Below are positions 1,104 to 22,350 of a stretch of 64,000 nt of DNA, one piece after another (within the stretch, counting starts at the first letter, position 1; each line of letters starts with the position of its first letter). Position numbers and translations under genes: made by a program. Below the pieces are notes generated by a model. That model had not been told where the DNA came from, searched no databases, and saw only the letters and a list, made by a program, of their open reading frames with translations. Source of the stretch: Candidatus Aminicenantes bacterium (lineage in GTDB: Bacteria > Acidobacteriota > Aminicenantia > UBA2199); contig DAOWCY010000005.1 of assembly GCA_030639305.1 (NCBI GenBank), positions 1,789-65,788 of the forward strand, written 5' to 3'.

Positions 1104-1105
1104 CC

Positions 1106-1232
1106 TCACTCGCGCGGCAGGGCGAAGCTTTTTGTTTTTCGTTTTTTTAAACAGAAGTTTTGATCAAACTTTTTCAAAAGTTTGGCCCCCGGCAGGGCCC
1201 CCGGCAGGGCCGCCGGAGGCAAAGAATGATGC
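1106..1232. repeat. Copy of a modular GC-rich hairpin repeat family (AAAAGTTTTGATCAAACTTTTTCAAAAGTTTGGCCCCCGGCAGGGCCGCCGGAGGCA module).
   Basis: Near-identical sequence recurs at 3208-3267 and, inverted, at 31790-31845. It contains a palindrome centred on GATC. Confidence 0.5.
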
Positions 1233-2984: not shown

Positions 2985-3267
2985 GGGTGAAGGTGCGGCG
3001 CACCCAGCCTATAAGCTGCTTCGCAGCCCCGTACGCACGGGGAGGCGGTAAGCCGCTTCGCGGCAGGAGCCAACCAGGAACGTTTCTCAAAGCAGAAAAT
3101 CGTATCGCTCATAAAAAGTTTTGCCCCGTACGCACGGGGAGGCGATAAGCCGCTTCGCGGCAGGAGCCTATAAGGGGCTTTCGAGTAACAGGAAAGCGTA
3201 TCGCTCATTAAAAGTTTTGATCAAACTTTTTCAAAAGTTTGGCTCCCGGCAGGGCCGCCGGAGGCAT
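2985..3267. repeat. Array of REP/RPE-like repeat modules. It holds two copies of [hairpin]GAGGCGNTAAGCCGCTTCGCGGCAGGAGCC, two copies of CGTATCGCTCATWAAAAG, and the GATC-palindrome module.
   Basis: Direct comparison of 3029-3076 with 3123-3171, of 3095-3120 with 3188-3212, and of 3208-3267 with 1151-1222. The hairpins CCCCGTACGCACGGGG are self-complementary. Confidence 0.55.
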
Positions 3268-3362: not shown

Positions 3363-4460
3363 ATGTTGAAGTGGATATACGATCTATCCTATGAAGAATT
3401 AGAAAAAGATATTGCTCACCTGTACCTGCCGCGATTTGTTGCCGACCAGGTCTGCCGGTGGCTCTATGAAAAAAATATAAACGATATAGCCTGCTGGTCC
3501 AATATCAGCAAAAAAAATAGGGAAACTTTATCGCAAACCTATGATATCCGGTTGAACAAAGTTTTAGAAGTCCAGGCAGATAGGGAAGGAAACCGGAAAT
3601 ATCTAATCGAACTAAAAGACAAATACAAAATCGAAGCAGTCCTTATCAAAGAGAAAAAACATTTCACCATGTGTATCTCTACCCAGGTGGGCTGCGCCTT
3701 AAAATGTAAATTCTGCGCCACCGGGCGGATGGGTTTTAAAAGAAACTTAAGCAGCGGCGAGATTTTGTCCCAGGCGCTGCTGTTGAAAAAAGACGCCGCC
3801 GAAAATAGCGCACCGGGGCAAAAAGAGAAAATAAATATCGTGTTTATGGGCATGGGCGAACCGCTGCTCAATTATGAGAACTTGAGCCGGGCGCTGCAGC
3901 TCATTACTTCGGAAAAAGGGATCGGCATTTCGCCGCGTAATATCACGGTCTCTACAGCGGGGATATTGGATGGAATTAAACGACTGGAAAAAGATTTCCC
4001 CCGCTTGAAGCTCAGTTTCTCTTTGAATGCCCCGGCGGCAGCGCTGCGTGAAGAGTTGATGCCCATTTCCAAAAAAGAGAAACTCGATGACATCCTGGCT
4101 TATTTTAGACACACTCCCAGGAAACACCGGGTTACTTTCGAATATGTACTGATAAAGGGCGTTAACGATTCCTTACAAGACGCCGAAAAAACCGCCGCCC
4201 TGCTGCGCGGCATCCCCTGCAAAATCAACCTAATCCCTTATAACCCGGGAGGAAGCGGCGTAAATTTAGAATCAAAGGTGCTCCTTGCCGCGAAGCGGCT
4301 TAACGCCCCCCCACGCGAGTGGGGTTTCGAAACCCCGGCGGAGCCGGAAGTGGAAGCTTTTTGCGAATACTTGCATTCCCGCGGTTATACTGTTATAATT
4401 AGATGGTCGAAAGGTAGGGAGATAAAATCCGCCTGCGGCCAGTTGGCAACGGAAATATGA
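3363..4460 (+). CDS. rlmN: Dual-specificity RNA methyltransferase RlmN (radical SAM; 23S rRNA m2A2503 / tRNA m2A37).
   Basis: CxxxCxxC radical-SAM motif GCALKCKFCATG, MGMGEPLLN, NLIPYNP and the C-terminal SACGQLA motif. It carries an extra ~20-aa segment near the C-terminus encoded by a repeat element. Confidence 0.85.
   Translation: MLKWIYDLSYEELEKDIAHLYLPRFVADQVCRWLYEKNINDIACWSNISKKNRETLSQTYDIRLNKVLEVQADREGNRKYLIELKDKYKIEAVLIKEKKHFTMCISTQVGCALKCKFCATGRMGFKRNLSSGEILSQALLLKKDAAENSAPGQKEKINIVFMGMGEPLLNYENLSRALQLITSEKGIGISPRNITVSTAGILDGIKRLEKDFPRLKLSFSLNAPAAALREELMPISKKEKLDDILAYFRHTPRKHRVTFEYVLIKGVNDSLQDAEKTAALLRGIPCKINLIPYNPGGSGVNLESKVLLAAKRLNAPPREWGFETPAEPEVEAFCEYLHSRGYTVIIRWSKGREIKSACGQLATEI
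4282..4345. repeat. Inverted copy of the GC-hairpin repeat module inserted in frame inside rlmN.
   Basis: GCCGCGAAGCGGCTTAACGCCCCCCCACGCGAGTGGGG is the reverse complement of the module at 31752-31796 and 3029-3076. It encodes the segment AAKRLNAPPREWGFETPAEP between the conserved NLIPYNP and YTVIIR segments of RlmN. Confidence 0.5.
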
Positions 4461-6817
4461 TGAAAAACAATAAAACCCACCAGGACGAAGAAGAAGTTCG
4501 CCCAGTTAAAAAAAAGGGGGCGGCGCCCCCAGCCGATAAAGGTGATATGAGCACCTCCCGTACAAAAAAGGGGACAGCCTCCCCAGCCGGTAAAGGTGAG
4601 CGGGACAGTTCCCGTAAAAGAAAGAAGCCCCCCGCACGCGTTACAAAAAAGAAAACACCCGCACACCCTAAGAAAAAAAAAGATTACCGGGAAAATGAAG
4701 AAGTTCGTTTTTTTAAAGAGCATATCCAGGGCATCAATAAGAAAAGCTTTCAATTAGATGATTTCCAGGAGAAAGCCATAGTGGGCGTGAGCAGTGACCG
4801 TTCGGTTTTAATCGCGGCTCCCACCGGCGCGGGGAAGACCTTAGTGGCCGAATACCTGATTACTAAATGCTTGCGGGAAGGAAAAGGCGTTATCTACACC
4901 GCCCCTATAAAAGCGCTCTCCAACCAGAAATACCGCGAATTCGAAACCCTCTTCCCCGGCAAAGTGGGCATCATCACCGGGGATGTGAATATTAATCCTT
5001 TTGCCCCGCTGATTATTATGACAACCGAGATATTTCGCAACCGCATCCTGGAAAATCCTGCCGGGCTGTCCGGCCACTCCTGGATTATCTTCGATGAAAT
5101 CCACTATATCGACAATCACGAGCGCGGCACAGTTTGGGAAGAGTCGTTGATTTTTCTTCCCCCGCACATGCGTTTTGTCGGGCTGTCGGCCACCATACCC
5201 AATGTCAGGCAGTTCGCTTCCTGGCTAAGGGAAATACACGTCCATCCCATCCAGGTCATAAAAGAAGATGAACGCCCCGTACCGCTGCATTTTTTATTTC
5301 AATGCAAAGGGCGGATTTGCGATTCCCTGAAAACAGTGGAAACGGAAGGCTACAGCCTGAAACACCGGAGGCCGCGAGGAAGCAATACTCCTTTAGCGCT
5401 CATTCAACATTTAGTCAGGACAGACCGCATCCCCTGCATCTATTTTACTTTCAGTCGTAAACGATGCGAGTACCTGGCCCAGGACGTTAAGGATATCGAT
5501 TTCCTCAGCGCAGAAGAGAGCCTGGAGATATTGGCCATTTATGATGATTACTGCCGCCGCTACGACCTGTTAAGCGAGGAACGGGCAGCATCGCTCAGGT
5601 CTTTAGTGGGTAAGGGCATCGCCTACCATCATGCCGGGATACATCCCATGTTGAAAGAGATATTGGAGCGGTTGTTTACCGCCAAACTGGTAAAAATAAT
5701 TTTTGCTACCGAAACCTTTGCTTTAGGGGTGAACATGCCCGCCCGGACGGTAGTATTGGACGACTTAAGAAAAAGTTACGGTAAATTTTTTATGACCTTA
5801 AAAGTGCGTGATTTTTACCAGATGGCAGGCCGGTCGGGCCGGCGCGGCATCGACAGCGAAGGTTTTGTGTACAGCCGGATAGACCCGGGCACCGTGGCTT
5901 TCCGGGAAATCAAAACCATTGTCAAATCCTCTCCCGAAATCATCAAGAGCCGCTTTAATGTATCTTATGCCACCATATTGAATCTTTATGAAAGCCACGG
6001 CGAAGAGCTGTTGGAAATCCACACCCGTTCGTTTTTTTATTTCCAGGAGAAATTTCATACCCGTACAAGGCAGTTGGAGCAGATGAAAGCCAGGTTGGAT
6101 ATACTCAAACAGTTGGGTTACATCCATGACGGCAGCCTGACCGAGAAAGGCCATTTCGCCCGCAAAATGCACGGCAATGAACTGCCTATTTCGGAACTTT
6201 TCGGTTATGGAGCGTTGGAAGACATGACTGTCAAGCAGTTGGGGATATTGTGTTTGGCCGCGGTTTTCGAGCCTCGCGGCGGGGCGGTCAGGAAGAAATT
6301 CAAGGACGAAGATGTCAGGCAGTTACAGCGTATGACCACCGCCGCTGTTCGCGGCATTCACAGGTTTGAGAAGAAGAAGCGGTTAAGTTATTTGAGTAAG
6401 AAGTTTTTTTTCGATTTATCCGGCTCGATAATGCACTGGATGAAGCAGGCTAATTTTAATCAAATTTTGCAGGAATTGCAGACCGACGAAGGGGAAGTGA
6501 TACGTTATTATCGTATGAGCATCCAGATTTTGCGGGAGATGTTGGAGACCCCCGTTTCCGAAAGTTTAAAGAAGAAGGTCCACCAGGCGATTGCGTTGAT
6601 CGACCGCGGTGTGATAGACGCCGAGGAGCAGTTACGCAAGACCGTGGAGTACGACGAGGAACTGGAAGCGGATTCGGAGTTGGGCGGCGACCGTGAGGAA
6701 GACGACCTTGAAGAAGGCGCTCTCGATGACGACCGGGAGTTTGAGATTGACCGGGAAGAGGGTGGCAGTGAGGAAGACGACCTGGAAGAGGACGTTCTCG
6801 AAGACCACCGGGAATAG
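4457..6817 (+). CDS. Ski2/HelY-like DExH-box helicase with a basic low-complexity N-terminal tail and an acidic repetitive C-terminal tail.
   Basis: Walker A APTGAGKTLVAEY, DEIH box (IFDEIHYI), SAT (SATIPN), HHAGI...ATETFALGVNMPARTVVL and the MAGRSGRRG arginine finger. Its ATG overlaps the rlmN stop (ATGA). Confidence 0.8.
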   Translation: MMKNNKTHQDEEEVRPVKKKGAAPPADKGDMSTSRTKKGTASPAGKGERDSSRKRKKPPARVTKKKTPAHPKKKKDYRENEEVRFFKEHIQGINKKSFQLDDFQEKAIVGVSSDRSVLIAAPTGAGKTLVAEYLITKCLREGKGVIYTAPIKALSNQKYREFETLFPGKVGIITGDVNINPFAPLIIMTTEIFRNRILENPAGLSGHSWIIFDEIHYIDNHERGTVWEESLIFLPPHMRFVGLSATIPNVRQFASWLREIHVHPIQVIKEDERPVPLHFLFQCKGRICDSLKTVETEGYSLKHRRPRGSNTPLALIQHLVRTDRIPCIYFTFSRKRCEYLAQDVKDIDFLSAEESLEILAIYDDYCRRYDLLSEERAASLRSLVGKGIAYHHAGIHPMLKEILERLFTAKLVKIIFATETFALGVNMPARTVVLDDLRKSYGKFFMTLKVRDFYQMAGRSGRRGIDSEGFVYSRIDPGTVAFREIKTIVKSSPEIIKSRFNVSYATILNLYESHGEELLEIHTRSFFYFQEKFHTRTRQLEQMKARLDILKQLGYIHDGSLTEKGHFARKMHGNELPISELFGYGALEDMTVKQLGILCLAAVFEPRGGAVRKKFKDEDVRQLQRMTTAAVRGIHRFEKKKRLSYLSKKFFFDLSGSIMHWMKQANFNQILQELQTDEGEVIRYYRMSIQILREMLETPVSESLKKKVHQAIALIDRGVIDAEEQLRKTVEYDEELEADSELGGDREEDDLEEGALDDDREFEIDREEGGSEEDDLEEDVLEDHRE
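4509..4619 (+). repeat. Imperfect tandem duplication (~54 nt x 2) encoding K/R/P-rich repeats at the helicase N-terminus.
   Basis: AAAAAAAAGGGGGCGGCGCCCCCAGCCGATAAAGGTGA... compared with AAAAAAGGGGACAGCCTCCCCAGCCGGTAAAGGTGA... Confidence 0.5.
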
Positions 6818-7090: not shown

Positions 7091-10000
7091 ATGCAGGAAA
7101 AGATCGATTTAAAAGATTTAGCGAAAAGGATAGACGAGAAACGGTTCTTCATCACTGAAATCATAAATTTCAAGGATCATTTCGAAGACTCTATCATTTT
7201 TGTATACCCGCTGGTGTTCCCGGATCCTGCCGGGGAAAACCTGGGAAACCGGGTCAGGTTCATTGCTATTCTCGATAGCTTTAAACTTTGCCTTTTTGAT
7301 TTATTAATCGATGGCGAAAAAATCGGGTTAAACGCACAAAAATCCATTGATTTGAGAAATTTTTTGAATAGAGATATATTAAAGGTAAAAATAACCGGTT
7401 TCCTGGGGCTGCGGGTGGAATTCCAGGGGATGGCGCGGATTCCTTATGTTTACTTAGACCTGGAATATTATTCCGCCGGGGAAGATAAAAAAGATATTAA
7501 AAGTGAAGGCGATTTCTCAAATGCCACCGTCAATTTCTCCCTCAGCCATATCGAGCCTTTTGATGAAGCTGATGATGTTGGACAGGATACAGACAAATTT
7601 AAGCTCCCATTTAGCCATTTTCACGACAAACAGGTCAAAAACATCAATATCGGGGAATTTCCGGATCATATTAAAAGTATTTATATAAGGGAGGGGCGAT
7701 CCGACAATACACTGGTACTGCAAAGCTGGAATCCCAACAAAGCGGATGAAGAAATTTTACCGGAAAAGATAAAGGATTACCATGTACTGGCCCTGTATTC
7801 GGATAAAGACTATATCTATGCCAGCAGCGAAAATGAGAGGATATATAAATTGAACTACTCCGGGGGCATAGTAAGGGATTTTCACCCCCGGGATTATGCC
7901 TTTGCCTTGAGCCTGATAAAAACCGGCGACTATCTCTATGCAGCCATGTCCGACCGTACCATATGCAGGATCGATATAAAAAAGAGTGATGGGGAAATCC
8001 TTTTTAAGACATTGGTGTCCTATCCTAAATTTCTCGTTCCCCTGGGCAAAGATAAATTGATGGTCACCACCGATAAAAAAGAACTAATTATCTTCAAAAC
8101 TCACGGTGAAGTGGAGACAAACGAACAGGTGGTTTTTGAAAATATAAGAATCGCCCTGGAAAAGGAAAAGGGAGATGTTCGAGCTATATGTGAGTATATC
8201 ATAAAAGAAGCCCCCATCGAGACAGAAGAGGAAATCCCAGCCTTAGAGTTTGCCGCTTATACATGGTCGGCATATTATCCCAAGGATTTATTTACTCCTC
8301 TTAAAAAATTAATCTATGTTATCAACCGGGAGTTTAGAAAAAGCACAGGTAAGGGAGATATTATCAGCCAATATATCAGGTGGCACCAGGAGATCATATT
8401 TAAAAACATAAAAGACTATTCGATATTATTGAAGGAATACTATCTGACCACCCGGGACAGCTATAGGCGAAAATTGCTGCTGCTGAGTGAAAATTTCACA
8501 GAAGTAAAAAACGAACTGCACTTTTTTTCCTGGAACGGCAGCGGCAGCGAACGGGAACATAAACTGAATCTCTTCGGTTTGTACGCTTGTTACAAAGGTG
8601 GGTTGTTTATCGAGTATGTAAAAACTCTTGAGAAAATCGGCGGGAAGGCAAAAAGTGCAGAAGTGGAAGGGGCGCTTTCCTGCTTAAAAATTACCGATCC
8701 AGGGGATGACCTGCAGCAGATTGCTGTGGTAGAGTCGCGGGACAGGGACCTCTATTTACTGGAAAAAGAGTATTTCGAAGGTAATGCCTCACCGCACCGT
8801 TTTGTTTTCTTAGATAAAATTTACCAGGTTAGAAAAATCGAAATTGTCGGTAAAAGCAGTGGCAAAAGATACCTCTTTTGCATTGATGGCAGTAGCGACT
8901 TCAAGGTTTTCGACTTAATCGATAAAGAAAAACAAGAGCCATATAAAAGAGAATTCGACGACTTCATTTGTGATTTCGAGGTCTATCCTGTTCCATTTGA
9001 AAATAAAAATTATGAATTAATTGTTTTGGGATTTAGAAATTCCGGTTTCGGTATTTATCTTTTCGATTTCGAGCAGCCGGGAAAACTGGCTTTACTGCAC
9101 AGCGAGCATTTACAAAACGATTGGATCCGGGACCTGGAGATTTTCCATAAACAGGGTTTCGATTTCAAACTGGCGGCTGTGGGTTACAAGCGAAAAAAAC
9201 TTTACCAGTTCGATCTGCGACTGTCTCCTATAAAAGAGGAAAAAGATTTCGCCGTCGAATTAGAAAAAAACGGGGAAAGAAGAAGCCCCCGGCCTTTACT
9301 TTGTGTCAAATACCATACCACAAAGGAAGGCAACATCTTTCTTGCTGCCGGCTGCGACCAGGGCAGTTTGATTTTTTTAGATGATCGCTTAAATATCAAA
9401 TGGTGCCAGGAATTGGGTGATGGTGTAAGGCATATAAAGGAGTTCGTCTGTGAAGATGGCGAAAAAGAGTTGGTAGTAGAGCTTGGCAATGGCGACATAT
9501 ATTTCTTTTCGGAACACGGCAACATTAGGCGTGAGATAAAATTTGGTAAACCTCTTTTTGCTGTTGACACAGCATTATTGGATAAAGAAAAAGGTAAGGG
9601 ACATTTAATTGCTGGGATTGAGAATGATTTAATAATTTACGAGGATAACAGGCAGGAGATAGTAGAAACAAAGAATCGTTTAAGGAAGAGCGAGCCCGCG
9701 GCACGTATCGAAGAGGAGATTCTTGAAATTTGCGATGAAGTGATAAAGGAGTATGAAGACACGGCAAGCCCGGTTCTAAATGCCGCCGAATCGCTGCAGT
9801 ACTATTATCAACTGCCATCCTTCGACTACCTGATTGAGATGTTTCACAAGAATCCCGAATATTTGTCTGACTATTACCGAAAAGATAAAGCAATGTTCCG
9901 GCAACTGCTCGGTATTAAAATTGAAGAGCAAATATCCGCCGGTTTTGGAGATTTAGAAAAAATTCTACTCCAGATGGTGAAGAATTTCCCCGAAGATCAA

Positions 10001-13000
10001 TATCTTTATTGGCTGCAGTTACGCTATTTCCAGGAAAAGTACCGGGATATAAAAAGGGGAAAGGTTAAACAGTTTTTAAAAGAGCTGTCTTCCGTTTTAA
10101 TTGATCCAACTTCAAAGAGAATAAAAAAAACATTAAAGAATTCAGATTGGTTATTAAGCAGCACAGCTATAACGATTGCCAATGTGTTAAACATCGATGA
10201 AAAGAACATACTTGTAATAATCAACGATTTTTTATCCTATAATATGCCCCACGAAATCTATCGTTACCTGGTGAATTACTTCAATCACAAACCGCTATTC
10301 GAGTTTCTTTTTACCCGATACTCTGAGTTGGATGAGTCAACTGTGGAAGCTATCCCCAGGAAATTACAATATTTTTTAGAACGGGTGGAAAAGCGAGCCG
10401 CTGATTTCAAAAAAGCGAATATCGAAAACCTGGATAGGATCAGCCGTTTTTATAGAAAAATCCTGGAAGCAGCGGAAATAGACAGCCTAATTGAAATGCA
10501 GCGGAAAGATATGGATATTTTTAAACCACTATACGAATTGGAAACAGCAGGTTTCGAGATAAGGCAAGAATTGAAGGACTTATTAAAGAGAGTTGTTGGT
10601 ATAAAATTTAAACGTATCGAAGACGAAATTTATCTATCGAGAAAAAATTTACTCATAGACGATTTGAAAAAAGAGATAGGCCTGGTAATGGAAGATAGCA
10701 GAAAAAAGGCGCATTTAGATAATAAATTTGTCACCCGGATATGTGAGCGATGGATGGAGATATTAGACCGGGAACAGGAGAAATATAATTCTGAAATCAA
10801 CCTGGTTCTCCTGGAAACAGAGATCGTTTCCGATATCACTCTAAAATATGGGATAATAACATTAGAGAACCGCGGCGGCTGTAAGGCAGAAAATGTGAAA
10901 CTGAAAGTCCGGGCAGAGGATCTCGTCAGCATGAGAGAAACTCCCTCTATAATAGAGATAAAGGCGGGGCCGAGGAAAGAAATTACTGTCCCATTAAGTA
11001 AATTGGTAGAAAACCCGGGGCAAAAAAAAGGGAATTTCCAGGTGCAGGTTGAGATTTCCTATCAAGATATAAATGGCAACGAAAGGTTCGTAAAGTACCC
11101 GGTGAAGTTGAAACTGATGGCCTCTGAAGATTTCAAAACAATGAGAGAATGGGACAAATATCAAAAGATGTATCCCGATCTATTCTTTTACCCTGCCTAT
11201 TATCCAAATAAGTATGATGGAATCCAAAAAAGTGTTAACGAATTAGTAGAAGAAAAGAGAGGGCTTCTATTTTTAGAAGGTGGTGAAGGAACAGGGCGGA
11301 GGAGCCTGCTGCTCACGTTGAGCCTGGAGATGCAGCCCGATGGCAATTATAGCAGTTTCTATATCGAGATTGCCCCCGACATAAAAAAAATTCCCCAAAA
11401 AAAGAACAGGCTCAATAAAATACTGCACATGTTGATCGAGAAAATAATAGGAGAAGATTTTCAATCGCTCCACGAGACCGTTAAATACAAGGAGAAGCTC
11501 TTAGATCAAATTGCTGCCACAGAAACAACCCTGGTCTTTTTTATAAACAAACTGGATGAATTGGACCAGGATTCCCTGGTAAAATTGTATGGATATTTAG
11601 AAGACATCTCCAACCAGGCGGTGGTCATAGCAGCAATCAATATCAATATTGTCAGGCTGTTCAGGCAAATCAATGACAAAACCGATGTCATCGACATTAC
11701 CAGGATAGACGAGGGCGATCAACAAAATGTTTTCAAACAAAAATTGGGCGAAAACTATCTCGACTTTATGCCTGAGAATTGGGAATTCCTGGTGGGAGAT
11801 CATGCGTATTCCACATTTGTATTAAGTAATGTCCTGGCCGGGAAGAAGGAAAAGTTAAGCTTCGATAAATGTGTCGATAAAATGTGGGCCTTTTCGCGGG
11901 ACGAGATTAAAAATCACAAAAAAGATTATTATGGTAATATCTGGAACACCCTCTCCCTGAACGAAAAATTAATCGTTTATGCTTGTGCCGTGGAGGATTG
12001 TGAAATAGAGATCGAGCACATAAAACCGGGATTGATTGTAGGCAAAGACCCCTTCCTGGCTAAGGGGAAGTTGCAGCGGTATGGTATTATTGCAAAAGTT
12101 AAGGAAGGTGGCACAATAGTTGACAAGTTTCGTATAGATGAAAATATGATATTCAACGAAGATAGCATCGCTTATATTAAGCGAGCCCGGGACAGGATGA
12201 AACTTTTAATGGATACCAGGGAGGGATATTTCAGGGTAAAGGTGCAGACCGCAAAGACCATGTTGGATAAAAATAGCTATTTGCGGATCGTTTTAGCCAA
12301 CTATCTTTATGATGAGGAGCGGCTGGAGAAAAAATTAGAAGAACTATGTTCCCGGGGTATCCTGCGTAAGATAAAGATCGGGGGGGGCGGGATTTACTAT
12401 GCACATAACGACTATTTTTTTATGATCTACCTGCTGCGTGAGTTCCCGGGATATAATAGATTAGTGGCACAGGGAGACTTAATAACCGCATACACGCTTC
12501 AGGAGATCCGCTGTGCTGTAACAGACCAGTTCAAAACCCAGAGGGAGTTGAATCAATTCCTGGAGTTTTTGGGAATCAATGTGAGTCAGCTAAAAATACT
12601 GGAAAACCTAACCAATTCCTGGGAATGGGCGAAATCGGATAGGCATGCGGATATTGAAACTTTTTATTTCCTTTTAGAAAAGACATATCATTTAGGGAAG
12701 TTTAAGAATCACTCGAAATTAAATCATTTCGATCATTTCCATGAAGGTTTTTACCGGTTCATGCTCCCTGCCATAACCCAACTGAATAATGTAATCCTTT
12801 ATGTGGTCAGCGGTGAAGAGGTCGAAATCACGCAGCTTGACAGCCGGTTATCTGTTGTTTTAGATGAGTACAAACTGGTTTCCGGGTCGGAATTGATATT
12901 TATCGTCACCTTATTCGATAGAATGGAGTTTAAACTGGATATCGATAAACACAAAATGAATATCGTGCTGTTAGATGAAAACAGCCTGAAGAAGTACATC

Positions 13001-14308
13001 CAATCCACCAAAAAGGAACTGGAACTGCTGCACCAGATGTCACGTTACCTGGACCTGCGCACATTATCCCCGTATCGTTACACTAAAGGTGTAATGGGAG
13101 ATATGTTCGTGGGTCGAAAAAAAGAATTAGCCAAAATTTTCAACAAACCGGATAAAGATTATACCATTTTCGGCGAACGCCAGATCGGTAAAACCTCCTT
13201 GTTAAAACAGGTAGAGTACCAGTGCAAAGTACGAGGTGAACAAGCCGGCATCTACGCCGTATTTATCGACTTATTCGATGTCTCCACCGGTAAAAAATTC
13301 TTCGAGAAGTTAAGCAGCAATCCGGACCTGGAAAAATTCCGCGCAGGGAGTAAAAAAAGGAAAATAGAAAATATGACAGCTTTTGAAGAACTCCTGGCAG
13401 ATTTTCTGAAAGAAAATGAAAGAGCAAGACTCATTTTTCTTGTCGACGAAATCGATGATTTATACGGCAATTGTTTTGTCAGGTGCCCCAATTGCGACGC
13501 CAAACAATTGGTGCGGACTGAAAACTATAATATGGTGGCCACAGATTTCAGGTGTTCTTTCTGCGGCCTGGAAGACCCTCCCCTGGATTTAAAGGAAAAA
13601 GCAGAGATCGAAGGGGTGCAGGAGATATTTGCCGGTTTTCGCAGCCTGTCGCAGATCTATGATGAGAGGTGCCAGTTTGTTTTCACCGGTTTTAAGATTT
13701 TGTATCAAATACATTCCCATCATGGTGCGGAGCTTTTTAACTTTACCGAAAATTTAACCCTGGAAAAATTGGAGTATGAAGATTTAAAAAGTTTGATTTT
13801 GGAGCCGATGAAACGATTGGGTATCGGTTTCACCTCCGAAAGTGATGTCATCGAAAGAATTTATAATGAGAGTTTCAGCGGTATTCCCTGGATCGTCCAG
13901 TATTACTGCGGGGAGATCATCGAAAAATTAGCTGATCTTGCAGTTAGAGAAGTATCGGTGGATTTGATCGACGAGATCACCCTTAAAGTAAAGCCGGAGG
14001 TAGAAAAAAATCTGAAAAACGCCGTAGTGACATCCAGGGAATGGGGGGTCTACAATCTCATCAAGCAGTATCGAAAATATGGTGGTGATGTGTTGGGTGG
14101 GGAATTCAGGATAGAGGATTTGTTGGAGTACCAGGATATGATGGAAATAAAGCCCGACCAGTTGCTTCGTCAAGCTGAATTAGAGCATTATCTCGATCTA
14201 TTCAGCCGCTGTTTTTTCCTGGATAAGGAATTAAAAATACAGGGGAAGAAGCCCAAACCGGAGCTTTATTATGTGCTTAAAATTAATCCCGATGTGTTTG
14301 AAATTTAG
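7091..14308 (+). CDS. Giant (2405 aa) multidomain protein. It contains beta-propeller-like repeats, helical regions, an Ig/CARDB-like segment, a degenerate P-loop, and a C-terminal Arch_ATPase-type P-loop NTPase domain carrying an inserted CxxC...CxxC zinc ribbon.
   Basis: Uninterrupted 7.2-kb ORF. Propeller-like segments (e.g. NIFLAAGCDQGSLIFLDD...GNGDIYFFSEHGN). CARDB-like segment (LENRGGCKAENVKLKV...). GGEGTGRRSLLL (degenerate Walker A). FVGRKKEL...GERQIGKTSLL (Walker A) with RLIFLVDEIDDL (Walker B). CPNCDAKQ...CSFCG zinc ribbon. AT-rich composition. Confidence 0.7.
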   Translation: MQEKIDLKDLAKRIDEKRFFITEIINFKDHFEDSIIFVYPLVFPDPAGENLGNRVRFIAILDSFKLCLFDLLIDGEKIGLNAQKSIDLRNFLNRDILKVKITGFLGLRVEFQGMARIPYVYLDLEYYSAGEDKKDIKSEGDFSNATVNFSLSHIEPFDEADDVGQDTDKFKLPFSHFHDKQVKNINIGEFPDHIKSIYIREGRSDNTLVLQSWNPNKADEEILPEKIKDYHVLALYSDKDYIYASSENERIYKLNYSGGIVRDFHPRDYAFALSLIKTGDYLYAAMSDRTICRIDIKKSDGEILFKTLVSYPKFLVPLGKDKLMVTTDKKELIIFKTHGEVETNEQVVFENIRIALEKEKGDVRAICEYIIKEAPIETEEEIPALEFAAYTWSAYYPKDLFTPLKKLIYVINREFRKSTGKGDIISQYIRWHQEIIFKNIKDYSILLKEYYLTTRDSYRRKLLLLSENFTEVKNELHFFSWNGSGSEREHKLNLFGLYACYKGGLFIEYVKTLEKIGGKAKSAEVEGALSCLKITDPGDDLQQIAVVESRDRDLYLLEKEYFEGNASPHRFVFLDKIYQVRKIEIVGKSSGKRYLFCIDGSSDFKVFDLIDKEKQEPYKREFDDFICDFEVYPVPFENKNYELIVLGFRNSGFGIYLFDFEQPGKLALLHSEHLQNDWIRDLEIFHKQGFDFKLAAVGYKRKKLYQFDLRLSPIKEEKDFAVELEKNGERRSPRPLLCVKYHTTKEGNIFLAAGCDQGSLIFLDDRLNIKWCQELGDGVRHIKEFVCEDGEKELVVELGNGDIYFFSEHGNIRREIKFGKPLFAVDTALLDKEKGKGHLIAGIENDLIIYEDNRQEIVETKNRLRKSEPAARIEEEILEICDEVIKEYEDTASPVLNAAESLQYYYQLPSFDYLIEMFHKNPEYLSDYYRKDKAMFRQLLGIKIEEQISAGFGDLEKILLQMVKNFPEDQYLYWLQLRYFQEKYRDIKRGKVKQFLKELSSVLIDPTSKRIKKTLKNSDWLLSSTAITIANVLNIDEKNILVIINDFLSYNMPHEIYRYLVNYFNHKPLFEFLFTRYSELDESTVEAIPRKLQYFLERVEKRAADFKKANIENLDRISRFYRKILEAAEIDSLIEMQRKDMDIFKPLYELETAGFEIRQELKDLLKRVVGIKFKRIEDEIYLSRKNLLIDDLKKEIGLVMEDSRKKAHLDNKFVTRICERWMEILDREQEKYNSEINLVLLETEIVSDITLKYGIITLENRGGCKAENVKLKVRAEDLVSMRETPSIIEIKAGPRKEITVPLSKLVENPGQKKGNFQVQVEISYQDINGNERFVKYPVKLKLMASEDFKTMREWDKYQKMYPDLFFYPAYYPNKYDGIQKSVNELVEEKRGLLFLEGGEGTGRRSLLLTLSLEMQPDGNYSSFYIEIAPDIKKIPQKKNRLNKILHMLIEKIIGEDFQSLHETVKYKEKLLDQIAATETTLVFFINKLDELDQDSLVKLYGYLEDISNQAVVIAAININIVRLFRQINDKTDVIDITRIDEGDQQNVFKQKLGENYLDFMPENWEFLVGDHAYSTFVLSNVLAGKKEKLSFDKCVDKMWAFSRDEIKNHKKDYYGNIWNTLSLNEKLIVYACAVEDCEIEIEHIKPGLIVGKDPFLAKGKLQRYGIIAKVKEGGTIVDKFRIDENMIFNEDSIAYIKRARDRMKLLMDTREGYFRVKVQTAKTMLDKNSYLRIVLANYLYDEERLEKKLEELCSRGILRKIKIGGGGIYYAHNDYFFMIYLLREFPGYNRLVAQGDLITAYTLQEIRCAVTDQFKTQRELNQFLEFLGINVSQLKILENLTNSWEWAKSDRHADIETFYFLLEKTYHLGKFKNHSKLNHFDHFHEGFYRFMLPAITQLNNVILYVVSGEEVEITQLDSRLSVVLDEYKLVSGSELIFIVTLFDRMEFKLDIDKHKMNIVLLDENSLKKYIQSTKKELELLHQMSRYLDLRTLSPYRYTKGVMGDMFVGRKKELAKIFNKPDKDYTIFGERQIGKTSLLKQVEYQCKVRGEQAGIYAVFIDLFDVSTGKKFFEKLSSNPDLEKFRAGSKKRKIENMTAFEELLADFLKENERARLIFLVDEIDDLYGNCFVRCPNCDAKQLVRTENYNMVATDFRCSFCGLEDPPLDLKEKAEIEGVQEIFAGFRSLSQIYDERCQFVFTGFKILYQIHSHHGAELFNFTENLTLEKLEYEDLKSLILEPMKRLGIGFTSESDVIERIYNESFSGIPWIVQYYCGEIIEKLADLAVREVSVDLIDEITLKVKPEVEKNLKNAVVTSREWGVYNLIKQYRKYGGDVLGGEFRIEDLLEYQDMMEIKPDQLLRQAELEHYLDLFSRCFFLDKELKIQGKKPKPELYYVLKINPDVFEI

Positions 14309-14328
14309 CATTGAAAAAGGAGTAAAAA

Positions 14329-16197
14329 ATGGAGCCAAAAGAATTATGCTGGAACAGTAGAACCGGTGAGAGCATTATAAAGGCAGACAGAGATTTTCGG
14401 GAAATTATTGGTTTTCTCGGCGTGAAAGACCCGGATAAGTTTATTATGGCGTTTTACTCTTACTTCGATAAAGAGACAAAAGCATTTATGCAGGTAATAA
14501 AAAAACTATTTGAAGAAATTAGACCGAAAAATTTTCAATGGCTCGATAAGGAGATCAGTTTCTCAGAAAATACGCCGGAGAAATCCCCGGAAAAGATACT
14601 GGAAGAATTACGAGATATTCCTGATTATCACAGCGGTGTTGTTACCCTCTTTGAACCCATAGACTACGGTTATGTTGACGAGATGAGAAAATATGGTTTT
14701 CATATGTCATTAACCAATTTATTTTCTTCTCGCAATTTTAAATTGTTTTTATTTGGAAACATTGCTTATGACCTCCATTACGTTCAACAAAACAGCCCAT
14801 TAAACCAGTATGTCAAAGAGTCTTATAAAATTTCCGGGTATAAAGATAATGAAATCAGATTTCTTTCAGCGGCCCAAAAAAATATTTTCAAAAAGATTTC
14901 AGATAAATGTGAAGATGGCTTCGATATTGTATCATTTGATGTTGTTTCGAGTCTCGAAAATTTCTGGGAAGAGATTAATTTAGAGAAACGGGTGGTGGAA
15001 TTGGTGGAAAGATTTATGGAAGTTCCTATTAAAACTGAAATTGAAAGACAAGCGATGAAAAAATTATCCGGTTTGCAACAGTTTTTGAAGAACAAGGGAG
15101 AACTGGTCAAGGGCCAAATAAAACCATCCGATGATGGGGGGAAAATCATTATGAATGTAAGTGGGGAGTCTGATCTATTTAAAGCCTATTTTGATAGGAC
15201 AGCCTTATTCAACATTGAAAGGATCGCGAGTGGTCAGAAGTATATATTTACCCCGAAAGAAATTTTCAAAGCGGTTTTCTCCAATAGTGATTTTATGAAT
15301 AAAAAGATAGATGTTCCACAAGAACCGGATGAAAAAACAAATGAAAAATTTAAACATATAGCAGATTTCTTTAAAGCCAGGAAACCTATGTTTTTATTGG
15401 GTACCGGGACATCATTGATGTCGGGAGCGCCGGACCACCAGAATTTTATCCGGCAAATATCGGGTATCGATAAAGACGACAAATTAAAACCTAAAGAGTT
15501 GTTCCTGGAGTTTGACAAATATATGGAGAAAATCGCAACAGTATTCGATATCAGGCAAAAAATGATTCCGCTGCTAAGTCAATTGAAACCCAGCATCGGT
15601 CACTTCTTCCTGGCTCAATTGGTCGAAAGGAAGTACACTGATGTTATAATAACTACGAATTATGATACCCTGATCGAAGATTCCCTGATGGATTTCGGTA
15701 TCAGATCAAGTAAATTTTTGAAAATCGTAGGAAGCACGGACAAAAAATGGGATTGGAAATGGGTGAATGATCTACAAGACGATCCCTTGAAAATTTTTAA
15801 GATATGTGGTGATGTATTACATGGGGAGAAGTTTGCCATAAAGTCCAAAGATGCAGAAACGTTTATATCAACGGCTGTTAAAGAATTGGAAACCATAATC
15901 AAAACCCCGAAACGAAATATGTTTATCATTTTAGGTCATGCGTTGAAGGAAAACAGTATTTTCGATTTGTTATTCAAATATAGTACCGAAAATACAGTTA
16001 TTGTTTATGTTAACTGCAACCCCTTTGAAGCAGCATTAGATAATGGGGAACCGTGTCCCGGTTTCAGGAAAGCTGTAAAGGCTAAAAAAATTAATAAAAA
16101 TGGTGCCAGAATATTTGAAATAGATAACCCGCATTACGGCCTATTTGATAATTTTATGGAACGCCTCTACCACGAATTGAAAGTCCCCGGCAAATAG
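14329..16197 (+). CDS. SIR2-like (SIR2_2 family) domain protein with a ~340-aa N-terminal domain of unknown function. Probable NAD+-consuming effector.
   Basis: RBS AAGGAG 10 nt upstream; 20-nt gap after the giant gene. SIR2_2 motifs MFLLGTGTSLMSGAPD, VIITTNYDTLIEDSL, VLHGE (catalytic His context) and MFIILGHAL. Confidence 0.75.
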   Translation: MEPKELCWNSRTGESIIKADRDFREIIGFLGVKDPDKFIMAFYSYFDKETKAFMQVIKKLFEEIRPKNFQWLDKEISFSENTPEKSPEKILEELRDIPDYHSGVVTLFEPIDYGYVDEMRKYGFHMSLTNLFSSRNFKLFLFGNIAYDLHYVQQNSPLNQYVKESYKISGYKDNEIRFLSAAQKNIFKKISDKCEDGFDIVSFDVVSSLENFWEEINLEKRVVELVERFMEVPIKTEIERQAMKKLSGLQQFLKNKGELVKGQIKPSDDGGKIIMNVSGESDLFKAYFDRTALFNIERIASGQKYIFTPKEIFKAVFSNSDFMNKKIDVPQEPDEKTNEKFKHIADFFKARKPMFLLGTGTSLMSGAPDHQNFIRQISGIDKDDKLKPKELFLEFDKYMEKIATVFDIRQKMIPLLSQLKPSIGHFFLAQLVERKYTDVIITTNYDTLIEDSLMDFGIRSSKFLKIVGSTDKKWDWKWVNDLQDDPLKIFKICGDVLHGEKFAIKSKDAETFISTAVKELETIIKTPKRNMFIILGHALKENSIFDLLFKYSTENTVIVYVNCNPFEAALDNGEPCPGFRKAVKAKKINKNGARIFEIDNPHYGLFDNFMERLYHELKVPGK

Positions 16198-16254
16198 AAA
16201 GCTAAGTAGATGATGGCGCTGCCTGTGCCTGATAGTTTTTCTAAGGTGGCTTTT

Positions 16255-16400
16255 TTTGTGTATTTGTTAATGAATAACATACTCGTAAGTATCATACTTT
16301 AGAGTATGTTAATCAGGTGCGCATTCACGGCGAATTATCGGGCCGGGTTATAATAAGGGTAGGACAGCCCCAGCGCCAGCTTTCAGCCCCAGCCGGGGCT
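16255..16400. repeat. Copy 1 of a repeated ~150-bp 3' element containing a long imperfect palindrome (AACATACTCGTAAGTATCATACTTTAGAGTATGTT at 16276-16310).
   Basis: About 85% identical to 17746-17895. The same order of blocks (palindrome, AATTCGCCG, CCAGCGCCAGCTTTCA) appears in both copies. Confidence 0.55.
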
Positions 16401-16403
16401 AAG

Positions 16404-16516
16404 CGGTTTGCTGAACCGCGTCCTCGCCGCAAATGGCTTTGAAACCGGGGGGAATCTCAGTTTGAAACCCTTTTCCCGAAAATAATATATACTCGATATT
16501 CTTGTCCGCTTCACGG
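16404..16516 (-). pseudogene. Remnant of the 3' end of a DUF234/Arch_ATPase-family gene (copy 1).
   Basis: Translates to ...EADKNIEYILFSGKGFQTEIPPGFKAICGEDAVQQTA*. It is homologous to the longer remnant at 24325-24545. Confidence 0.4.
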
Positions 16517-16588
16517 AGGTGTGTTAAATCCTCGCAAAAAAACAAGATTCTTACGTATCAGTGGCACAGATTTTCTGCTATTTTCCGA

Positions 16589-17602
16589 TTATTCATTTTT
16601 CTTCGCTTCCGCTAATTCAAAAAACTCATGAAGTTTGGCCTGGAGCAGTCTTTTGTCGATAAGTTTCGTTTCATAATCCGCTATTACCGCCGGGCTTATG
16701 TTTCGACTCAGAGCATACTCAACTACTTCCGAATCCTTTCCTTTGCAAAGCAAAATCCCGATACTGGGGTTTTCATGCGGTTTCTTTACATCCCGGTCTA
16801 ATGCCTCCAGGTAAAAATTCATCTTCCCCAGGTATTCAGGCTTGAACTTTTCGATTTTGAGATCAAAGGCCACTAGGCAGGAAAGCTCCCGGTGAAAAAA
16901 AAGAAGATCGATGTAATAATCATGCATCCCAACCTGGAGACGAAATTCCTCAGCGACGAAAGAGAAATCTCTACCAACTTCAAGAATAAATTTTTTAAGG
17001 TTATTAATGATCGATTTTTGCAGGTCGTTCTCAGTAAAGGGGTCCGGCAAATCCAGGAATTCAAGCAAGTACTTATCTTTAAAAACGTTACCGGCAGAGG
17101 GATAAAACTGCTCTACCGATGTCGATGTTTTTCGGTTAGACAACATCGTTCGTTCAAAATAACCGCTGCTGATCTGCCTGTCTAATTCCCTGGCAGAATA
17201 ATTCTCCTTTACACTCAAGCGTAGATAAAATTCTTTTTCTTCGATGGTTTTCGTTTTCGATAAAATAAGTCTATTATTAGACCAGCTTAATTCTGTCCAC
17301 AGTGGGGACAGTTTTGAATAGTCTTTATAAGTCTCGTAAAACTGTTTCATTCTCCAGAGATTACGGCTTGTAAAACCTTTCAAGCCAGGGCCGGATTCCT
17401 GGATGAATTCGGCTAATCTCCGGACAACCCCCATTCCCCAACCTGATGCTTCTACTCTCTTGTTGATATATTCTCCAACTTCCCAATAAAGTTTGAGCAG
17501 TTCCTTGTTAACTACTCTTAAAGTTTTATCCCGGCTTTCTTTAATAAGATGTGTGATCTCTTTAAATTGTTCTTCTTCTCTTCGTGATATCGATTCAGCC
17601 AT
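16589..17602 (-). CDS. DUF1016 (YhcG-like) PD-(D/E)XK nuclease family protein.
   Basis: N-terminal WTELSWS(N) motif and the C-terminal PD-(D/E)XK context YIDLLFFHRELSCLVAFDLKIEKFKPEYLGKMNFYLEA. Confidence 0.75.
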   Translation of the reverse strand: MAESISRREEEQFKEITHLIKESRDKTLRVVNKELLKLYWEVGEYINKRVEASGWGMGVVRRLAEFIQESGPGLKGFTSRNLWRMKQFYETYKDYSKLSPLWTELSWSNNRLILSKTKTIEEKEFYLRLSVKENYSARELDRQISSGYFERTMLSNRKTSTSVEQFYPSAGNVFKDKYLLEFLDLPDPFTENDLQKSIINNLKKFILEVGRDFSFVAEEFRLQVGMHDYYIDLLFFHRELSCLVAFDLKIEKFKPEYLGKMNFYLEALDRDVKKPHENPSIGILLCKGKDSEVVEYALSRNISPAVIADYETKLIDKRLLQAKLHEFFELAEAKKNE

Positions 17603-17703
17603 AATGTTATAATAAATTACTCCTTAAAATTAAACTAACGCTAATAATATGCCACCTTTGGATAAAAAAGCCAACTCCGAAAGTTTCGTTAATTTAGGGA
17701 TGG

Positions 17704-17736
17704 GTCTTTTTCCGCCCCGGGCCGGGGACTTTTTCC
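17704..17736 (+). terminator. Terminator-like GC hairpin flanked by T runs (CTTTTTCC-GCCCCGGGCCGGGG-ACTTTTTCCCC).
   Basis: CCCCGG/CCGGGG stem with a T5 tract on the plus strand. An identical copy lies at 24270-24310. Confidence 0.4.
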
Positions 17737-17745
17737 CCAGGGTGG

Positions 17746-17895
17746 CTTTTTCGGTGTACCTGTTCACGAATAACATACTCATAAGTATAATACTTTAGAG
17801 TATGTTAGTCAGGTGTGCGTCCGCGGCGAATTATTATGAAAGCGGCAGGACAGCACCAGCGCCAGCTTTCAATCCCAGCTAAAGAGAATTAGCCT
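17746..17895. repeat. Copy 2 of the 3' element with the long imperfect palindrome (17772-17806).
   Basis: Aligned by eye to 16255-16400. It lies immediately 3' of the stop of gene 17913-19418. Confidence 0.55.
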
Positions 17896-17912
17896 GCTCT
17901 TTAAATTACACC

Positions 17913-19418
17913 CTATGAAGATGTGGGGGCGCTCTCTATCACCTGCCAATGACCACCCCTGGCCGGGCCAATCCTCTCCAACATTCCCTTTTTTTTCAGT
18001 TTGTCGATGTTCCAGGCAGCTCCCTGCCGACTCAACCCGGTGCTGCGGGCCAACTCCGAAATCGACAACCGGGGATTTTTTTTAATGAGTTCTATAATTT
18101 TTGTGCCGGTTTTCATACTAGTTTTCATATTAGCTTTCATGTTAGTTTTCGTACTAGTCTTCATGTTAGTTTTCGTACTAGTTTTCATATCAGTTTTCCT
18201 CCCGGTTTTTGTGTCGGTTTTTGCGTCGATTCTTTCTTTAGCTTCAACACCGGCTTGTTCACTATCCCTGGCTTTGATTTTTTTCCTGCTCTCCCAGGTT
18301 GACCCCTCCTTTTCCCGCCGGTAGAATGTGGTCATAAATCCACTCTTCAAGATATTAAATTCGATTTTTACCCCGTATCCCACGCACTGTTCGTAGATTC
18401 TCTTTAAACCGGAACCCCATTTCTCGATCTCTTTCGATTTGAAAAGAATCTCCGCTAAAAGGGGATTTCTTAAGATAGACTGCTCTTTGCCGCTGATAAA
18501 ATCTTCCGGGGTAAACCCTTCGGGAAAAGAACCGGGGTTGTATATCTCTACACGGTTCCTGAAAATAGCGATTTTGTTACTCTCGGGCTTGAGATAATCC
18601 CGGTGGCAAAGCGAATTGACCAGCGCTTCCCGGACCGCTTCGATGGGTATTTCCGGGATTTCTTCCCGCCTCAACTGGCCGAACTTTACCCGCCAGTCGA
18701 TATGCTCTTTGATATATGTTTCCATCCTCTCGAGCAAGTCGAATATGCTGCCTTTGTACTGTTTTATATCCAGGAATGTTATCTTGTCTACCCCGGCAAA
18801 AACTGCTAACTGCACTTCCAGGGAGTTCTTTTCGCAAAACAACACGTTGCCCGCATGCAAGAGTTTCCCGTTTTTTAGCAAGCCCAATTTGTTCAGGGTG
18901 GTTTCAATATCTTCGAAATCGAAGCCCACCCTGCCCGCTTGTTTTGCCCTTTTCATGAAATCTTTGAGCGCTTGTTTATCGATATTTTCCAGGGCTGTGT
19001 CAGATATGCGATTATCCCATCTGAGCAGCCCGCGGTTCTTTTTTATGATTATATTTTCCAGTTCCTTTGCGCTTAATTTTTTATTTTCATCACCCACCCT
19101 GGTATAAGCTCGTCCATAAGCGTAGTAGGGGATTTCGCCGCCCTCGAAACTTACATGAATGCATTGTTTGTTTTTAATTGTGACGCACTCTATCGTGGGG
19201 AATATTTGCGGTTCGATAAAATCGGAGATGGCTTTCGAGACGTCCCTGATGGTTTTTTCCGTAACCGTCTGCCCGACAACTACTCCATCGTTTTTTATCC
19301 CGAAATACAACTCTCCTTTCCGGTGTTTGTTTAGTATTGCCGCGATGGAGATAACTGCTTCTTTCAGCAGGGAGGTGGATTTTTTTAGTTCCAATTGCTC
19401 GTTTTTTTTGAAGCTCAT
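17913..19418 (-). CDS. Schlafen/AlbA_2-like putative ATP-binding regulator with a C-terminal winged helix-turn-helix. It contains an internal T/K-rich tandem-repeat linker.
   Basis: N-terminal AlbA_2-like region (LLKEAVISIAAILNKHRKGELYFGIKNDGVVVGQ). C-terminal HTH (LSISELARSTGLSRQGAAWNIDKLKKKGMLERIG). Minus-strand ORF of 501 aa. Confidence 0.6.
   Translation of the reverse strand: MSFKKNEQLELKKSTSLLKEAVISIAAILNKHRKGELYFGIKNDGVVVGQTVTEKTIRDVSKAISDFIEPQIFPTIECVTIKNKQCIHVSFEGGEIPYYAYGRAYTRVGDENKKLSAKELENIIIKKNRGLLRWDNRISDTALENIDKQALKDFMKRAKQAGRVGFDFEDIETTLNKLGLLKNGKLLHAGNVLFCEKNSLEVQLAVFAGVDKITFLDIKQYKGSIFDLLERMETYIKEHIDWRVKFGQLRREEIPEIPIEAVREALVNSLCHRDYLKPESNKIAIFRNRVEIYNPGSFPEGFTPEDFISGKEQSILRNPLLAEILFKSKEIEKWGSGLKRIYEQCVGYGVKIEFNILKSGFMTTFYRREKEGSTWESRKKIKARDSEQAGVEAKERIDAKTDTKTGRKTDMKTSTKTNMKTSTKTNMKANMKTSMKTGTKIIELIKKNPRLSISELARSTGLSRQGAAWNIDKLKKKGMLERIGPARGGHWQVIESAPTSS
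18109..18228. repeat. Ten tandem copies of a 12-nt unit (GTTTTCATACTA-like) encoding (K-T-x-M/T) 4-aa repeats inside CDS 17913-19418.
   Basis: Seen directly: GTTTTCATACTA GTTTTCATATTA GCTTTCATGTTA GTTTTCGTACTA GTCTTCATGTTA GTTTTCGTACTA GTTTTCATATCA GTTTTCCTCCCG GTTTTTGTGTCG GTTTTTGCGTCG. Confidence 0.7.
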
Positions 19419-21331: not shown

Positions 21332-21399
21332 GTATTCTTTTTCGCTTTTCCTTTTAAGTTCATCATTTCCAGGATATATCCCGAAGGTTTGAAGTGGAA

Positions 21400-22341: not shown

Positions 22342-22350
22342 ATTGTCCTC

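Follow-up and report, generated by a model that had tools for sequence, protein, structure and literature searches.

Results

An in-frame insert in the rlmN gene

We analysed a stretch of 64,000 nucleotides from Candidatus Aminicenantes (hereafter the window), in which the gene rlmN carries, within its coding sequence, a copy of a GC-rich hairpin repeat that is found mainly between genes. rlmN encodes a 23S rRNA/tRNA adenine-C2 methyltransferase of the radical S-adenosylmethionine (SAM) type, and its stop codon overlaps the start (4457) of the downstream gene, which encodes a DEAD/DSHCT helicase. The exact protein is deposited at NCBI as MCK4764723.1, annotated as RlmN of a Candidatus Aminicenantes metagenome-assembled genome (MAG), and it matches the RlmN of PDB entry 3rf9 with E=7e-65. 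PF04055 and PF21016 are present in all homologues of the window RlmN, the nearest named ones being from Candidatus Aminicenantes as well. The next-best homologues share 64-69% identity by BLASTP and are mostly 337-345 aa long, compared to 365 aa in the window. The cysteines C104, C111, C115, C118 and C358 occupy invariant alignment columns (CxxxCxxC, the second Cys pair and SACGQL).

In an alignment of the window RlmN with 22 orthologues (23 sequences), a 21-residue stretch between NLIPYN and (F/Y)ETP is found in the window protein only and corresponds to a gap in 22/22 orthologues. Moreover, the DNA was read for four orthologous loci (L001, L061, L062 and L063), all of which show the same rlmN-helicase synteny. 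In the codon alignments, the interval from N294 to T324 comprises 29 codons in the window versus 8 in each of these loci; hence, exactly 63 nt are extra. These alignments demonstrate an insertion that is specific to this lineage, and no aligned orthologue shares the segment with the window. The insert is translated as N301-G321, giving the peptide NLESKVLLAAKRLNAPPREWG and not AAKRLNAPPREWGFETPAEP, which an earlier note on this DNA had proposed. That the reading frame is preserved, as the note had stated, is borne out by the open frame over all 365 codons of rlmN.

The boundaries listed in Table 1 assume that hairpin 1 lies wholly within the insert. On the right side of the insert, the window reads TTC GAA ACC CCG GCG where L001 reads TAC GAA ACC CCG GCC, P325 is invariant in all 23 sequences, and in the codon alignments with the four loci the native TTCGAAACCCCGGC falls to the right of the insert. 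Under the same assumption, the sequence before the insertion would have been ...GGA AGC GGC GT|T TTC GAA..., coding for PGGSGVFETP. The earlier note had placed the repeat at 4282-4345. The repeat core of this interval stands, its right third (4325-4345) is native as judged from the L001 DNA, and its left limit lies about 20 nt short, since the AT-rich module M3 had been missed.

At its core (4281-4325), the insert reproduces a two-hairpin module in antisense. The GC content of this core is 73%, compared to 60% in 4257-4324 and 46% in the rest of rlmN. Only two of the six combinations of orientation and phase leave the 63 nt free of stop codons, and the observed combination is one of the two.

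The hairpin repeat family

The repeat unit consists of hairpin 1 (hp1, CCCCRYNCGCRYGGGG), the spacer AGGCGN and hairpin 2 (hp2, TAAGCNGCTTCGCNGC); its consensus reads CCCCRY NCGC RYGGGG for hairpin 1, then AGGCGN, the TAAG-led hairpin 2 TAAGC-N-GCTTCGC-N-GC, and AGG. On the forward strand, the 17-mer TAAGCCGCTTCGCGGCA is found at 3049, 3146 and 31773; on the reverse strand it is found within rlmN, and a compensated variant of it lies at 31874-31890. These 5 matches in the window compare with 0.00 expected from 100 shuffles, and a 16-mer with the stem positions left free gave 7 matches versus 0.42 expected. In addition, the 39 nt at 4286-4324 and those at 31751-31789 show 95% complementarity. 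Given these counts and this complementarity, the repeat in rlmN is real and far beyond chance, which demonstrates that the inserted segment belongs to a family with intergenic copies, as had been noted earlier. Instead of the three intergenic copies reported before, we found four full ones in the window besides the copy in rlmN, together with a half copy and a deleted remnant (Table 1).

When folded as single strands, all five full copies form the same two hairpins. In their alignment, 55/55 cells are standard pairs; in 4 of the 11 pairs both partners have changed, and in no pair has just one of them changed. Slid controls of the same alignment were paired to 35-60%. A third compensated stem, GCTGC/GCAGC, is supplied by the copy that comprises only hairpin 2. 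Compensatory changes have thus maintained both hairpins. The five full copies were also used to build a covariance model, which recovers them at 60-72 bits, and the next best match in the 64 kb scores 17 bits. None of the Rfam covariance models matched the window at the gathering score. Rfam holds no family for this unit, and the hairpin repeat family is previously undescribed. We also considered the hairpins as intrinsic terminators; however, they lack a T-run, and the true terminator of the upstream gene lies at 2946-2972.

The first two full copies lie in the two units (3026-3122 and 3123-3219) of a 97-nt tandem duplication; these units are 92% identical over their first 53 nt and diverged in the remainder.

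Table 1. Positions of rlmN, its insert and the repeat copies in the window; bit scores are those of the covariance model.
Feature	Position	Strand	Remarks
rlmN	3363-4460	+	ORF of 365 aa; 23S rRNA/tRNA adenine-C2 radical-SAM methyltransferase
Insert, 63 nt	4262-4324 (+/-2 nt)	-	Antisense to rlmN; from codon and protein alignments
Hairpin 1 of the insert	4309-4324	-	CCCCAC TCGC GTGGGG
Hairpin 2 of the insert with TAAG leader	4286-4302	-	TAAGCCGCTTCGCGGCA
AT-rich module M3 of the insert	4264-4278	-	CCTTTGATTCTAAAT; 14/15 match to 31842-31856 (-) and 19605-19619 (+)
Native rlmN 10-mer	4252-4261	+	GAAGCGGCGT; abuts the insert; AGC GGC also in orthologue L061
Native rlmN F322-P328	4325-4345	+	FETPAEP; common to orthologue DNA and protein
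Half copy (hairpin 2 only)	3012-3027		TAAGCTGCTTCGCAGC; directly before the copy at 3026-3070
Full copy (hp1+hp2)	3026-3070	+	Intergenic; 71.4 bits
Full copy	3123-3167	+	Intergenic; second unit of the 97-nt tandem duplication; 72.4 bits
Full copy	31750-31794	+	Intergenic; closest relative of the rlmN copy (95%); 70.8 bits
Diverged full copy	31869-31912	-	Intergenic; stems GCCCAC/GTGGGC and GCGGC/GCCGC, then M3; 60.3 bits
Deleted remnant of the repeat	about 1104-1125		
M4-M5 part of a composite repeat	3205-3265	+	Intergenic; upstream of rlmN
M4-M5 copy	1148-1222	+	
M4-M5 copy	31741-31857	-	
M4-M5 copy, diverged	19604-19710	+	

A larger repeat mosaic

The two-hairpin unit is part of a larger mosaic with the further modules M3 (CTTTTGATTCTAAAT, at 31842-31856 and 19605-19619), M4 (AAGTTTTGATCAAACTTTTTCAAAAGTTTGG) and M5 (CCCCGGCAGGGCCGCCGGAGGCA). 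Composite copies extend over ~1104-1222, 3124-3265, 31911-31741 (reverse strand) and, in diverged form, 19600-19710. The order hp1-hp2-M3 in the rlmN insert is the same as the order at 31912-31842.

Within M5 of the copy at 31741-31857 lies a 42-nt hp1-hp2 unit, and nothing is found at this position in the copies at 1148 and 3205. This could be read as a clean filled site (31751-31792) versus two empty ones; however, the reading is weakened by the copy at 19604, which holds a different 23-nt segment there, so that a deletion in the 1148 and 3205 copies is equally possible. On the basis of these sequences, the hairpin unit is best described as an indel-polymorphic module, for which both insertion and deletion are possible.

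The AT-rich palindromic repeat formed by M4 and M5 (AAGTTTTGATCAAACTTTTTCAAAAGTTTGG + CCCCGGCAGGGCCGCCGGAGGCA) deserves a separate remark. Its copies are 96-98% identical, and for three of the four, a gene of matching orientation begins 40-250 nt downstream. The repeat might serve as an operator or promoter module.

The insert in independent assemblies

The identical insert is present in six independently assembled contigs, of which five are from ENA assemblies of different samples (L004, ERZ23498485; L065, ERZ23498442; L066, ERZ23498471; L068, ERZ23498405; L072, ERZ23498528) and one is from an NCBI MAG (L064, GCA_023135565.1). Compared to the window, these contigs carry single-nucleotide polymorphisms (SNPs) or a homopolymer indel elsewhere, but the insert and the repeat cluster upstream of it show no differences. 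Since the insert is identical in all six, it is not an artefact.

An assembly chimera, in which a repeat had collapsed into rlmN, would have been a reasonable concern because repeats do break and confuse short-read assemblies. Short-read contigs of the same organism end at 3212, 3245, ~3155 and ~1200, all within repeats; these breaks indicate that multiple copies of the family exist across the genome. Moreover, the contig L072 (scaffold_827814, 822 nt) is itself chimeric: in it, the C-terminal ~90 residues of RlmN, including the insert, follow an unrelated N-terminus that resembles a membrane protein. However, the same junctions recur in six contigs from separate samples and assemblers that differ by SNPs elsewhere, and the insertion is in frame with an exact codon length. 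A chimera is effectively refuted, and its probability is next to nil. To the left of the window, the sequence was extended by only ~1.2 kb, via the protease gene.

A homopolymer (A8/A9) differs between the assemblies at 4516-4524, in the region encoding the Lys-rich N-terminal extension of the DEAD/DSHCT helicase. This polymorphism shifts the called start of the helicase, which is 786 aa long in the window and 756 aa in L065.

Predicted effect on RlmN

Of the 96 alignment columns without variation among the 22 orthologues, 94 are retained in the window RlmN; the orthologues themselves, each left out in turn, show 0-8 deviations. The AlphaFold2 model of the window RlmN has a mean predicted local distance difference test (pLDDT) score of 85.4 and aligns with RlmN crystal structures at template modelling (TM) scores of 0.84-0.92. 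Residues 297-318, between the strand 286-292 and the helix 327-339, form the sole internal segment with a pLDDT below 50, and this segment is the insert. An alignment with E. coli RlmN places the insert in the loop NPFPG|APYG, and no residues in the orthologue alignment vary more than the four that precede the insert. According to the model, the insert is probably a 21-residue disordered surface loop, and the rest of RlmN, judged by model and conservation, looks functional.

It might be argued that the insert has impaired or inactivated rlmN, leaving a young pseudogene with its frame still open. The insert lies 5-8 residues past the conserved NLIPYN strand, its hairpins are still perfect, so that the event may be recent, and rlmN is not essential in E. 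coli. Against this, 365 codons are open, all Cys motifs are kept, and the two deviating invariant columns make this protein no worse than its orthologues; the insertion loop is the most variable stretch among them. The insert is also fixed and identical in the six contigs, which come from different samples and show SNPs elsewhere, and rlmN has kept its translational coupling to the helicase gene downstream. We therefore consider a pseudogene quite improbable. From alignment and model we infer that the insert is a tolerated passenger, neutral or nearly neutral, that is fixed in the sampled population. If an insertion is tolerated, a survivorship filter is to be expected, and the observed combination of orientation and phase, one of only two without a stop codon, reflects it.

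Distribution of the repeat

Exact-pattern scans for the hp1-hp2 junction returned no match in the GTDB representative genomes and none in the JGI metagenomes, and a relaxed hp1-hp2 pattern returned four matches, all at one unrelated high-GC locus. A viral scan gave one unrelated coding match, and a BLAST search against plasmids gave marginal matches only. None of the repeat modules was present in the rlmN contigs of the relatives L001, L061, L062 and L063. Within the reach of exact-pattern scans, the family thus appears confined to this lineage.

One of the five copies in the window is intragenic. When 5.8 billion proteins were searched with the concatenated peptides of all six frames to find further in-frame copies, only the chimeric L072 was returned; the full-length RlmN itself was not listed, which makes this a weak negative.

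Hairpin 2 and the ends of IS91-family elements

A widespread IS91-family element has, at its left end (terIS side), a palindrome to which hairpin 2 with its flanks (TAAGCCGCTTCGCGGCAGG) is identical at 19/19 nt. A scan of the GTDB representative genomes with TAAGCSGCTTCGCSGCAGG yielded at least 52 loci. In at least 25 of these, the motif is preceded by GTTCAAG or GTTGAAC, the sequence upstream is unrelated and the sequence downstream is conserved within a genome. The motif bearing TAAGCCGCTTCGCGGCAGG is often found at contig ends, and downstream of it lie a phage-type integrase and a Y2_Tnp/Zn_Tnp_IS91 transposase.

The resulting 26-nt motif (GTTCAAG/GTTGAAC + TAAGCCGCTTCGCGGCAGG) at the left ends of IS91-family elements was seen in the loci L005-L056 (e.g. 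L018 at 358-2461, L040, L047, L019 and L034), with hosts among Planctomycetota, Desulfobacterota, Rokubacteria, Bacteroidales, Verrucomicrobia and others. In L047, the right end of such an element is joined to a left end, which resembles the junction in a circle or between tandem copies. We rejected the idea that the 26-nt motif (GTTCAAGTAAGCCGCTTCGCGGCAGG) is the 3' end of a TnpB/IS200-IS605 guide RNA, because the nearby ORFs in L020 and L042 are not TnpB and because the interior of the element, downstream of the motif, encodes the integrase and the Y2/IS91 transposase. Rfam models run on 20 loci with the motif gave a tRNA match only.

Other features of the window

The region 7091-24140 resembles a defence or mobile island. 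It encodes a 2405-aa protein (weak AAA_16 match), a SIR2_2 protein, a YhcG PDDEXK nuclease, a Schlafen-like ATPase, a DUF4062+TPR protein and an HTH_21 (IS3-like) ORF. Repeat pairs are associated with it at 16380-16513/24297-24430 (82%) and 16236-16338/17732-17834 (83%). The ORF 17913-19418 (reverse strand) combines Schlafen AlbA_2, HATPase_c_4 and HTH domains and contains, at 18097-18224, a 12-nt tandem repeat with at least 8 copies that encodes four-residue repeats (TKTNMKTSTKTNMKANMKTS...).

A large hybrid polyketide synthase (PKS)/nonribosomal peptide synthetase (NRPS) cluster with KS-AT-KR-ACP-TE and condensation domains occupies 31956-63943 on the reverse strand and shows many internal domain repeats. 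It includes a B12-binding radical-SAM enzyme at 51331-53085. The gene at 28597-31701, just downstream of the cluster, encodes a beta-lactamase-fold domain fused to an ABC ATPase.

Discussion

Overall, our data make it highly probable that a 63-nt fragment of a mainly intergenic GC-hairpin repeat was inserted antisense and in frame into rlmN, where it is carried as a tolerated passenger. The fragment, comprising hairpin 1, hairpin 2 and an AT-rich tail, would have landed in a sequence-variable loop between the beta-strand NLIPYN and the next helix. As its length is a multiple of three and its orientation and phase are free of stop codons, it is translated and the enzyme is otherwise intact. The fragment may have arrived by the same process that scatters the hairpin module elsewhere. 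Mobilisation in trans by a single-strand transposase of the HUH type that recognises hairpins is most likely; such a single-strand mechanism is suggested by the identity of hairpin 2 to an IS91-family end and by a flank that mimics an arm of hairpin 2. The native GAAGCGGCGT beside the insert matches the hairpin 2 arm GAAGCGGCTT (4292-4301) at 9/10 positions, a similarity that recurs at 0.6% of the window positions. Read in the orientation of the repeat, the insert ends just before this native pseudo-copy of the start of hairpin 2. That the hairpin unit occurs in some copies of another repeat and is missing from others fits the same picture.

Several observations weigh against this interpretation. 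Neither a target-site duplication (TSD) nor terminal inverted repeats (TIRs) are present at the ends of the insert, which begins with CCCCAC... and ends with ...AAATTT between the flanks GGTTTCGAAA and ACGCCGCTTC, with no duplication. The 18 window ORFs that were scanned, a set outside of which four large PKS/NRPS ORFs fall, contain no HUH transposase (Y1_Tnp, Y2). Moreover, the copy in rlmN resembles the 5' part of the longer composite hp1-hp2-M3-M4-M5 and not a complete unit, and such a partial unit fits the capture of a fragment as well as transposition. No rlmN allele that lacks the insert and is closer than 69% identity was found in the databases, so that the event cannot be dated and its junctions are not base-exact. 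With regard to tolerance, the loop follows a strand that we take to line the SAM site in radical-SAM barrels. A classical TIR-type miniature inverted-repeat transposable element (MITE) is excluded by the lack of TSD and TIRs.

The main rival is capture during repair or replication, by way of filling a double-strand break, template switching or illegitimate recombination with a repeat copy, with the frame kept by chance. The partial nature of the rlmN copy, which has hp1-hp2-M3 but no M4-M5, the missing TSD and TIRs, and the 9/10 microhomology between the native flank and the hairpin 2 arm all agree with such a capture, as does a 1-nt indel of the rlmN copy in comparison to the other copies (GGCAAGGAG versus GGCAGGAG). 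However, GAAGCGGCGT is followed by M3 and not by the sequence 3' of hairpin 2, whereas a simple template switch predicts otherwise. The 5' boundary at the foot of hairpin 1, which is found likewise in the nested copy at 31751, also suggests a defined end of an element. We regard repair capture as possible, though rather unlikely. A different history, in which the 21 residues are an old lineage-specific loop of RlmN and the intergenic copies derive from it or resemble it by chance, draws on the fact that no orthologue is closer than 69%, so that the ancestral state in the genus is not directly seen. Yet the stretch is absent from all 22 aligned orthologues, it shares 95% identity with an intergenic copy whereas for rlmN itself the identity to orthologues is down to 64-69%, its GC content is 73% versus 46%, and zero matches are expected by chance. 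This history is effectively refuted, with a very slight probability left to it.

More specifically, the two-hairpin module could be a non-autonomous, REP-like derivative of the IS91 family (Y2 HUH, rolling-circle), with hairpin 2 as the terIS palindrome recognised by the transposase. Copies would then have moved, or have been copied, in trans as single-stranded DNA, and landing beside mimics of a hairpin arm, such as GAAGCGGCGT in rlmN, would have allowed entry into coding sequences. The terIS end of the IS91 family, which lies upstream of the genes, has been described as a single subterminal palindrome beside a site of cleavage at GTTC (PMC13181058). The left ends found in the GTDB scan agree with this description, and hairpin 2 with its flanks is identical to their palindrome over 19 nt. 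It has also been reported that IS91-family elements make no TSD and that short IS801 end fragments can move (PMC13181058; PMC3189936). However, the IS801 mini-fragments derive from the right (ori) end and not from the ter end, as hairpin 2 would. A further point against transposition of this kind is that the cleavage tetranucleotide GTTC/CTCG is missing beside hairpin 2 in every window copy. The window copies carry GGCGG, GGCGA, GGCGT, GGGTA or CCTA 5' of TAAG, whereas the IS91-family elements carry GTTCAAG/GTTGAAC; lacking a GTTC-containing heptamer, hairpin 2 of the window fails as a functional terIS on a defining feature. No Y2 transposase was found in the window ORFs scanned, and no oriIS-like end was identified. 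We consider an IS91 derivation unlikely and put it forward tentatively. If it were true, an uncultured phylum would possess a counterpart to the RAYT/REP system that is based on IS91. In any case, the 19 nt that hairpin 2 shares with the end of a phylum-spanning IS91-family element are an unexpected clue, open to testing, to how REP-like repeats originate outside RAYT.

Comparison with known repeat systems

Repetitive extragenic palindromic (REP) sequences of proteobacteria, with BIME and REPIN as related arrangements, are short GC-rich imperfect palindromes mobilised by RAYT (TnpA-REP, Y1 HUH). They are extragenic by definition, and in-frame intragenic copies are unusual. The repeat described here is similarly a short, imperfect and GC-rich palindrome that is mostly extragenic, forms a mosaic with other modules and shows compensated stems. 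The inverted doublet of 31751-31792 with 31874-31911 is reminiscent of a REPIN. In contrast to REPs, no RAYT was found in the window ORFs scanned, and the repeat has no GTAG-type 5' tetranucleotide. MITEs of the ERIC, BOX and Correia type are small non-autonomous repeats that are occasionally tolerated as in-frame fusions (PMC10969869). They differ by their TIRs and TSD, neither of which is present at the rlmN insert.

The parallel suggested earlier was with the Rickettsia palindromic elements (RPEs). As far as summarised in PMC10969869, RPEs (Ogata et al. 2000) are palindromic repeats that lie between genes as well as in frame within conserved genes, where they are translated into an extra peptide that the fold of the host protein accommodates. 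The repeat in rlmN is also palindromic and in frame within a conserved gene, and its extra peptide appears compatible with the fold. The analogy thus holds for an in-frame, translated palindrome; it does not hold for a colonisation of coding sequences on the scale of RPEs, since one coding copy was found. According to the same summary, RPEs of Rickettsia and related bacteria are ~100-150 bp long and each genome has them in dozens of genes, whereas the insert described here has 63 nt and is found in Aminicenantes. The two are set apart by these descriptions and not by a comparison of consensus sequences. The resemblance to both RPEs and REPs is best taken as a functional analogy only.

In-frame palindromic insertion into conserved genes is already known from the Rickettsia RPEs (PMC10969869); the phylum and the repeat family are new here. 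Such repeats can fragment short-read assemblies, and the extra loop could be misannotated as a lineage-specific feature of RlmN. With its codon-exact length, its insertion site, a loop predicted to be disordered and intact catalytic residues, the rlmN insert is an unusually clean example. It demonstrates that the colonisation of a conserved housekeeping enzyme by an in-frame palindromic repeat occurs well outside Rickettsia, in the uncultured Aminicenantes.

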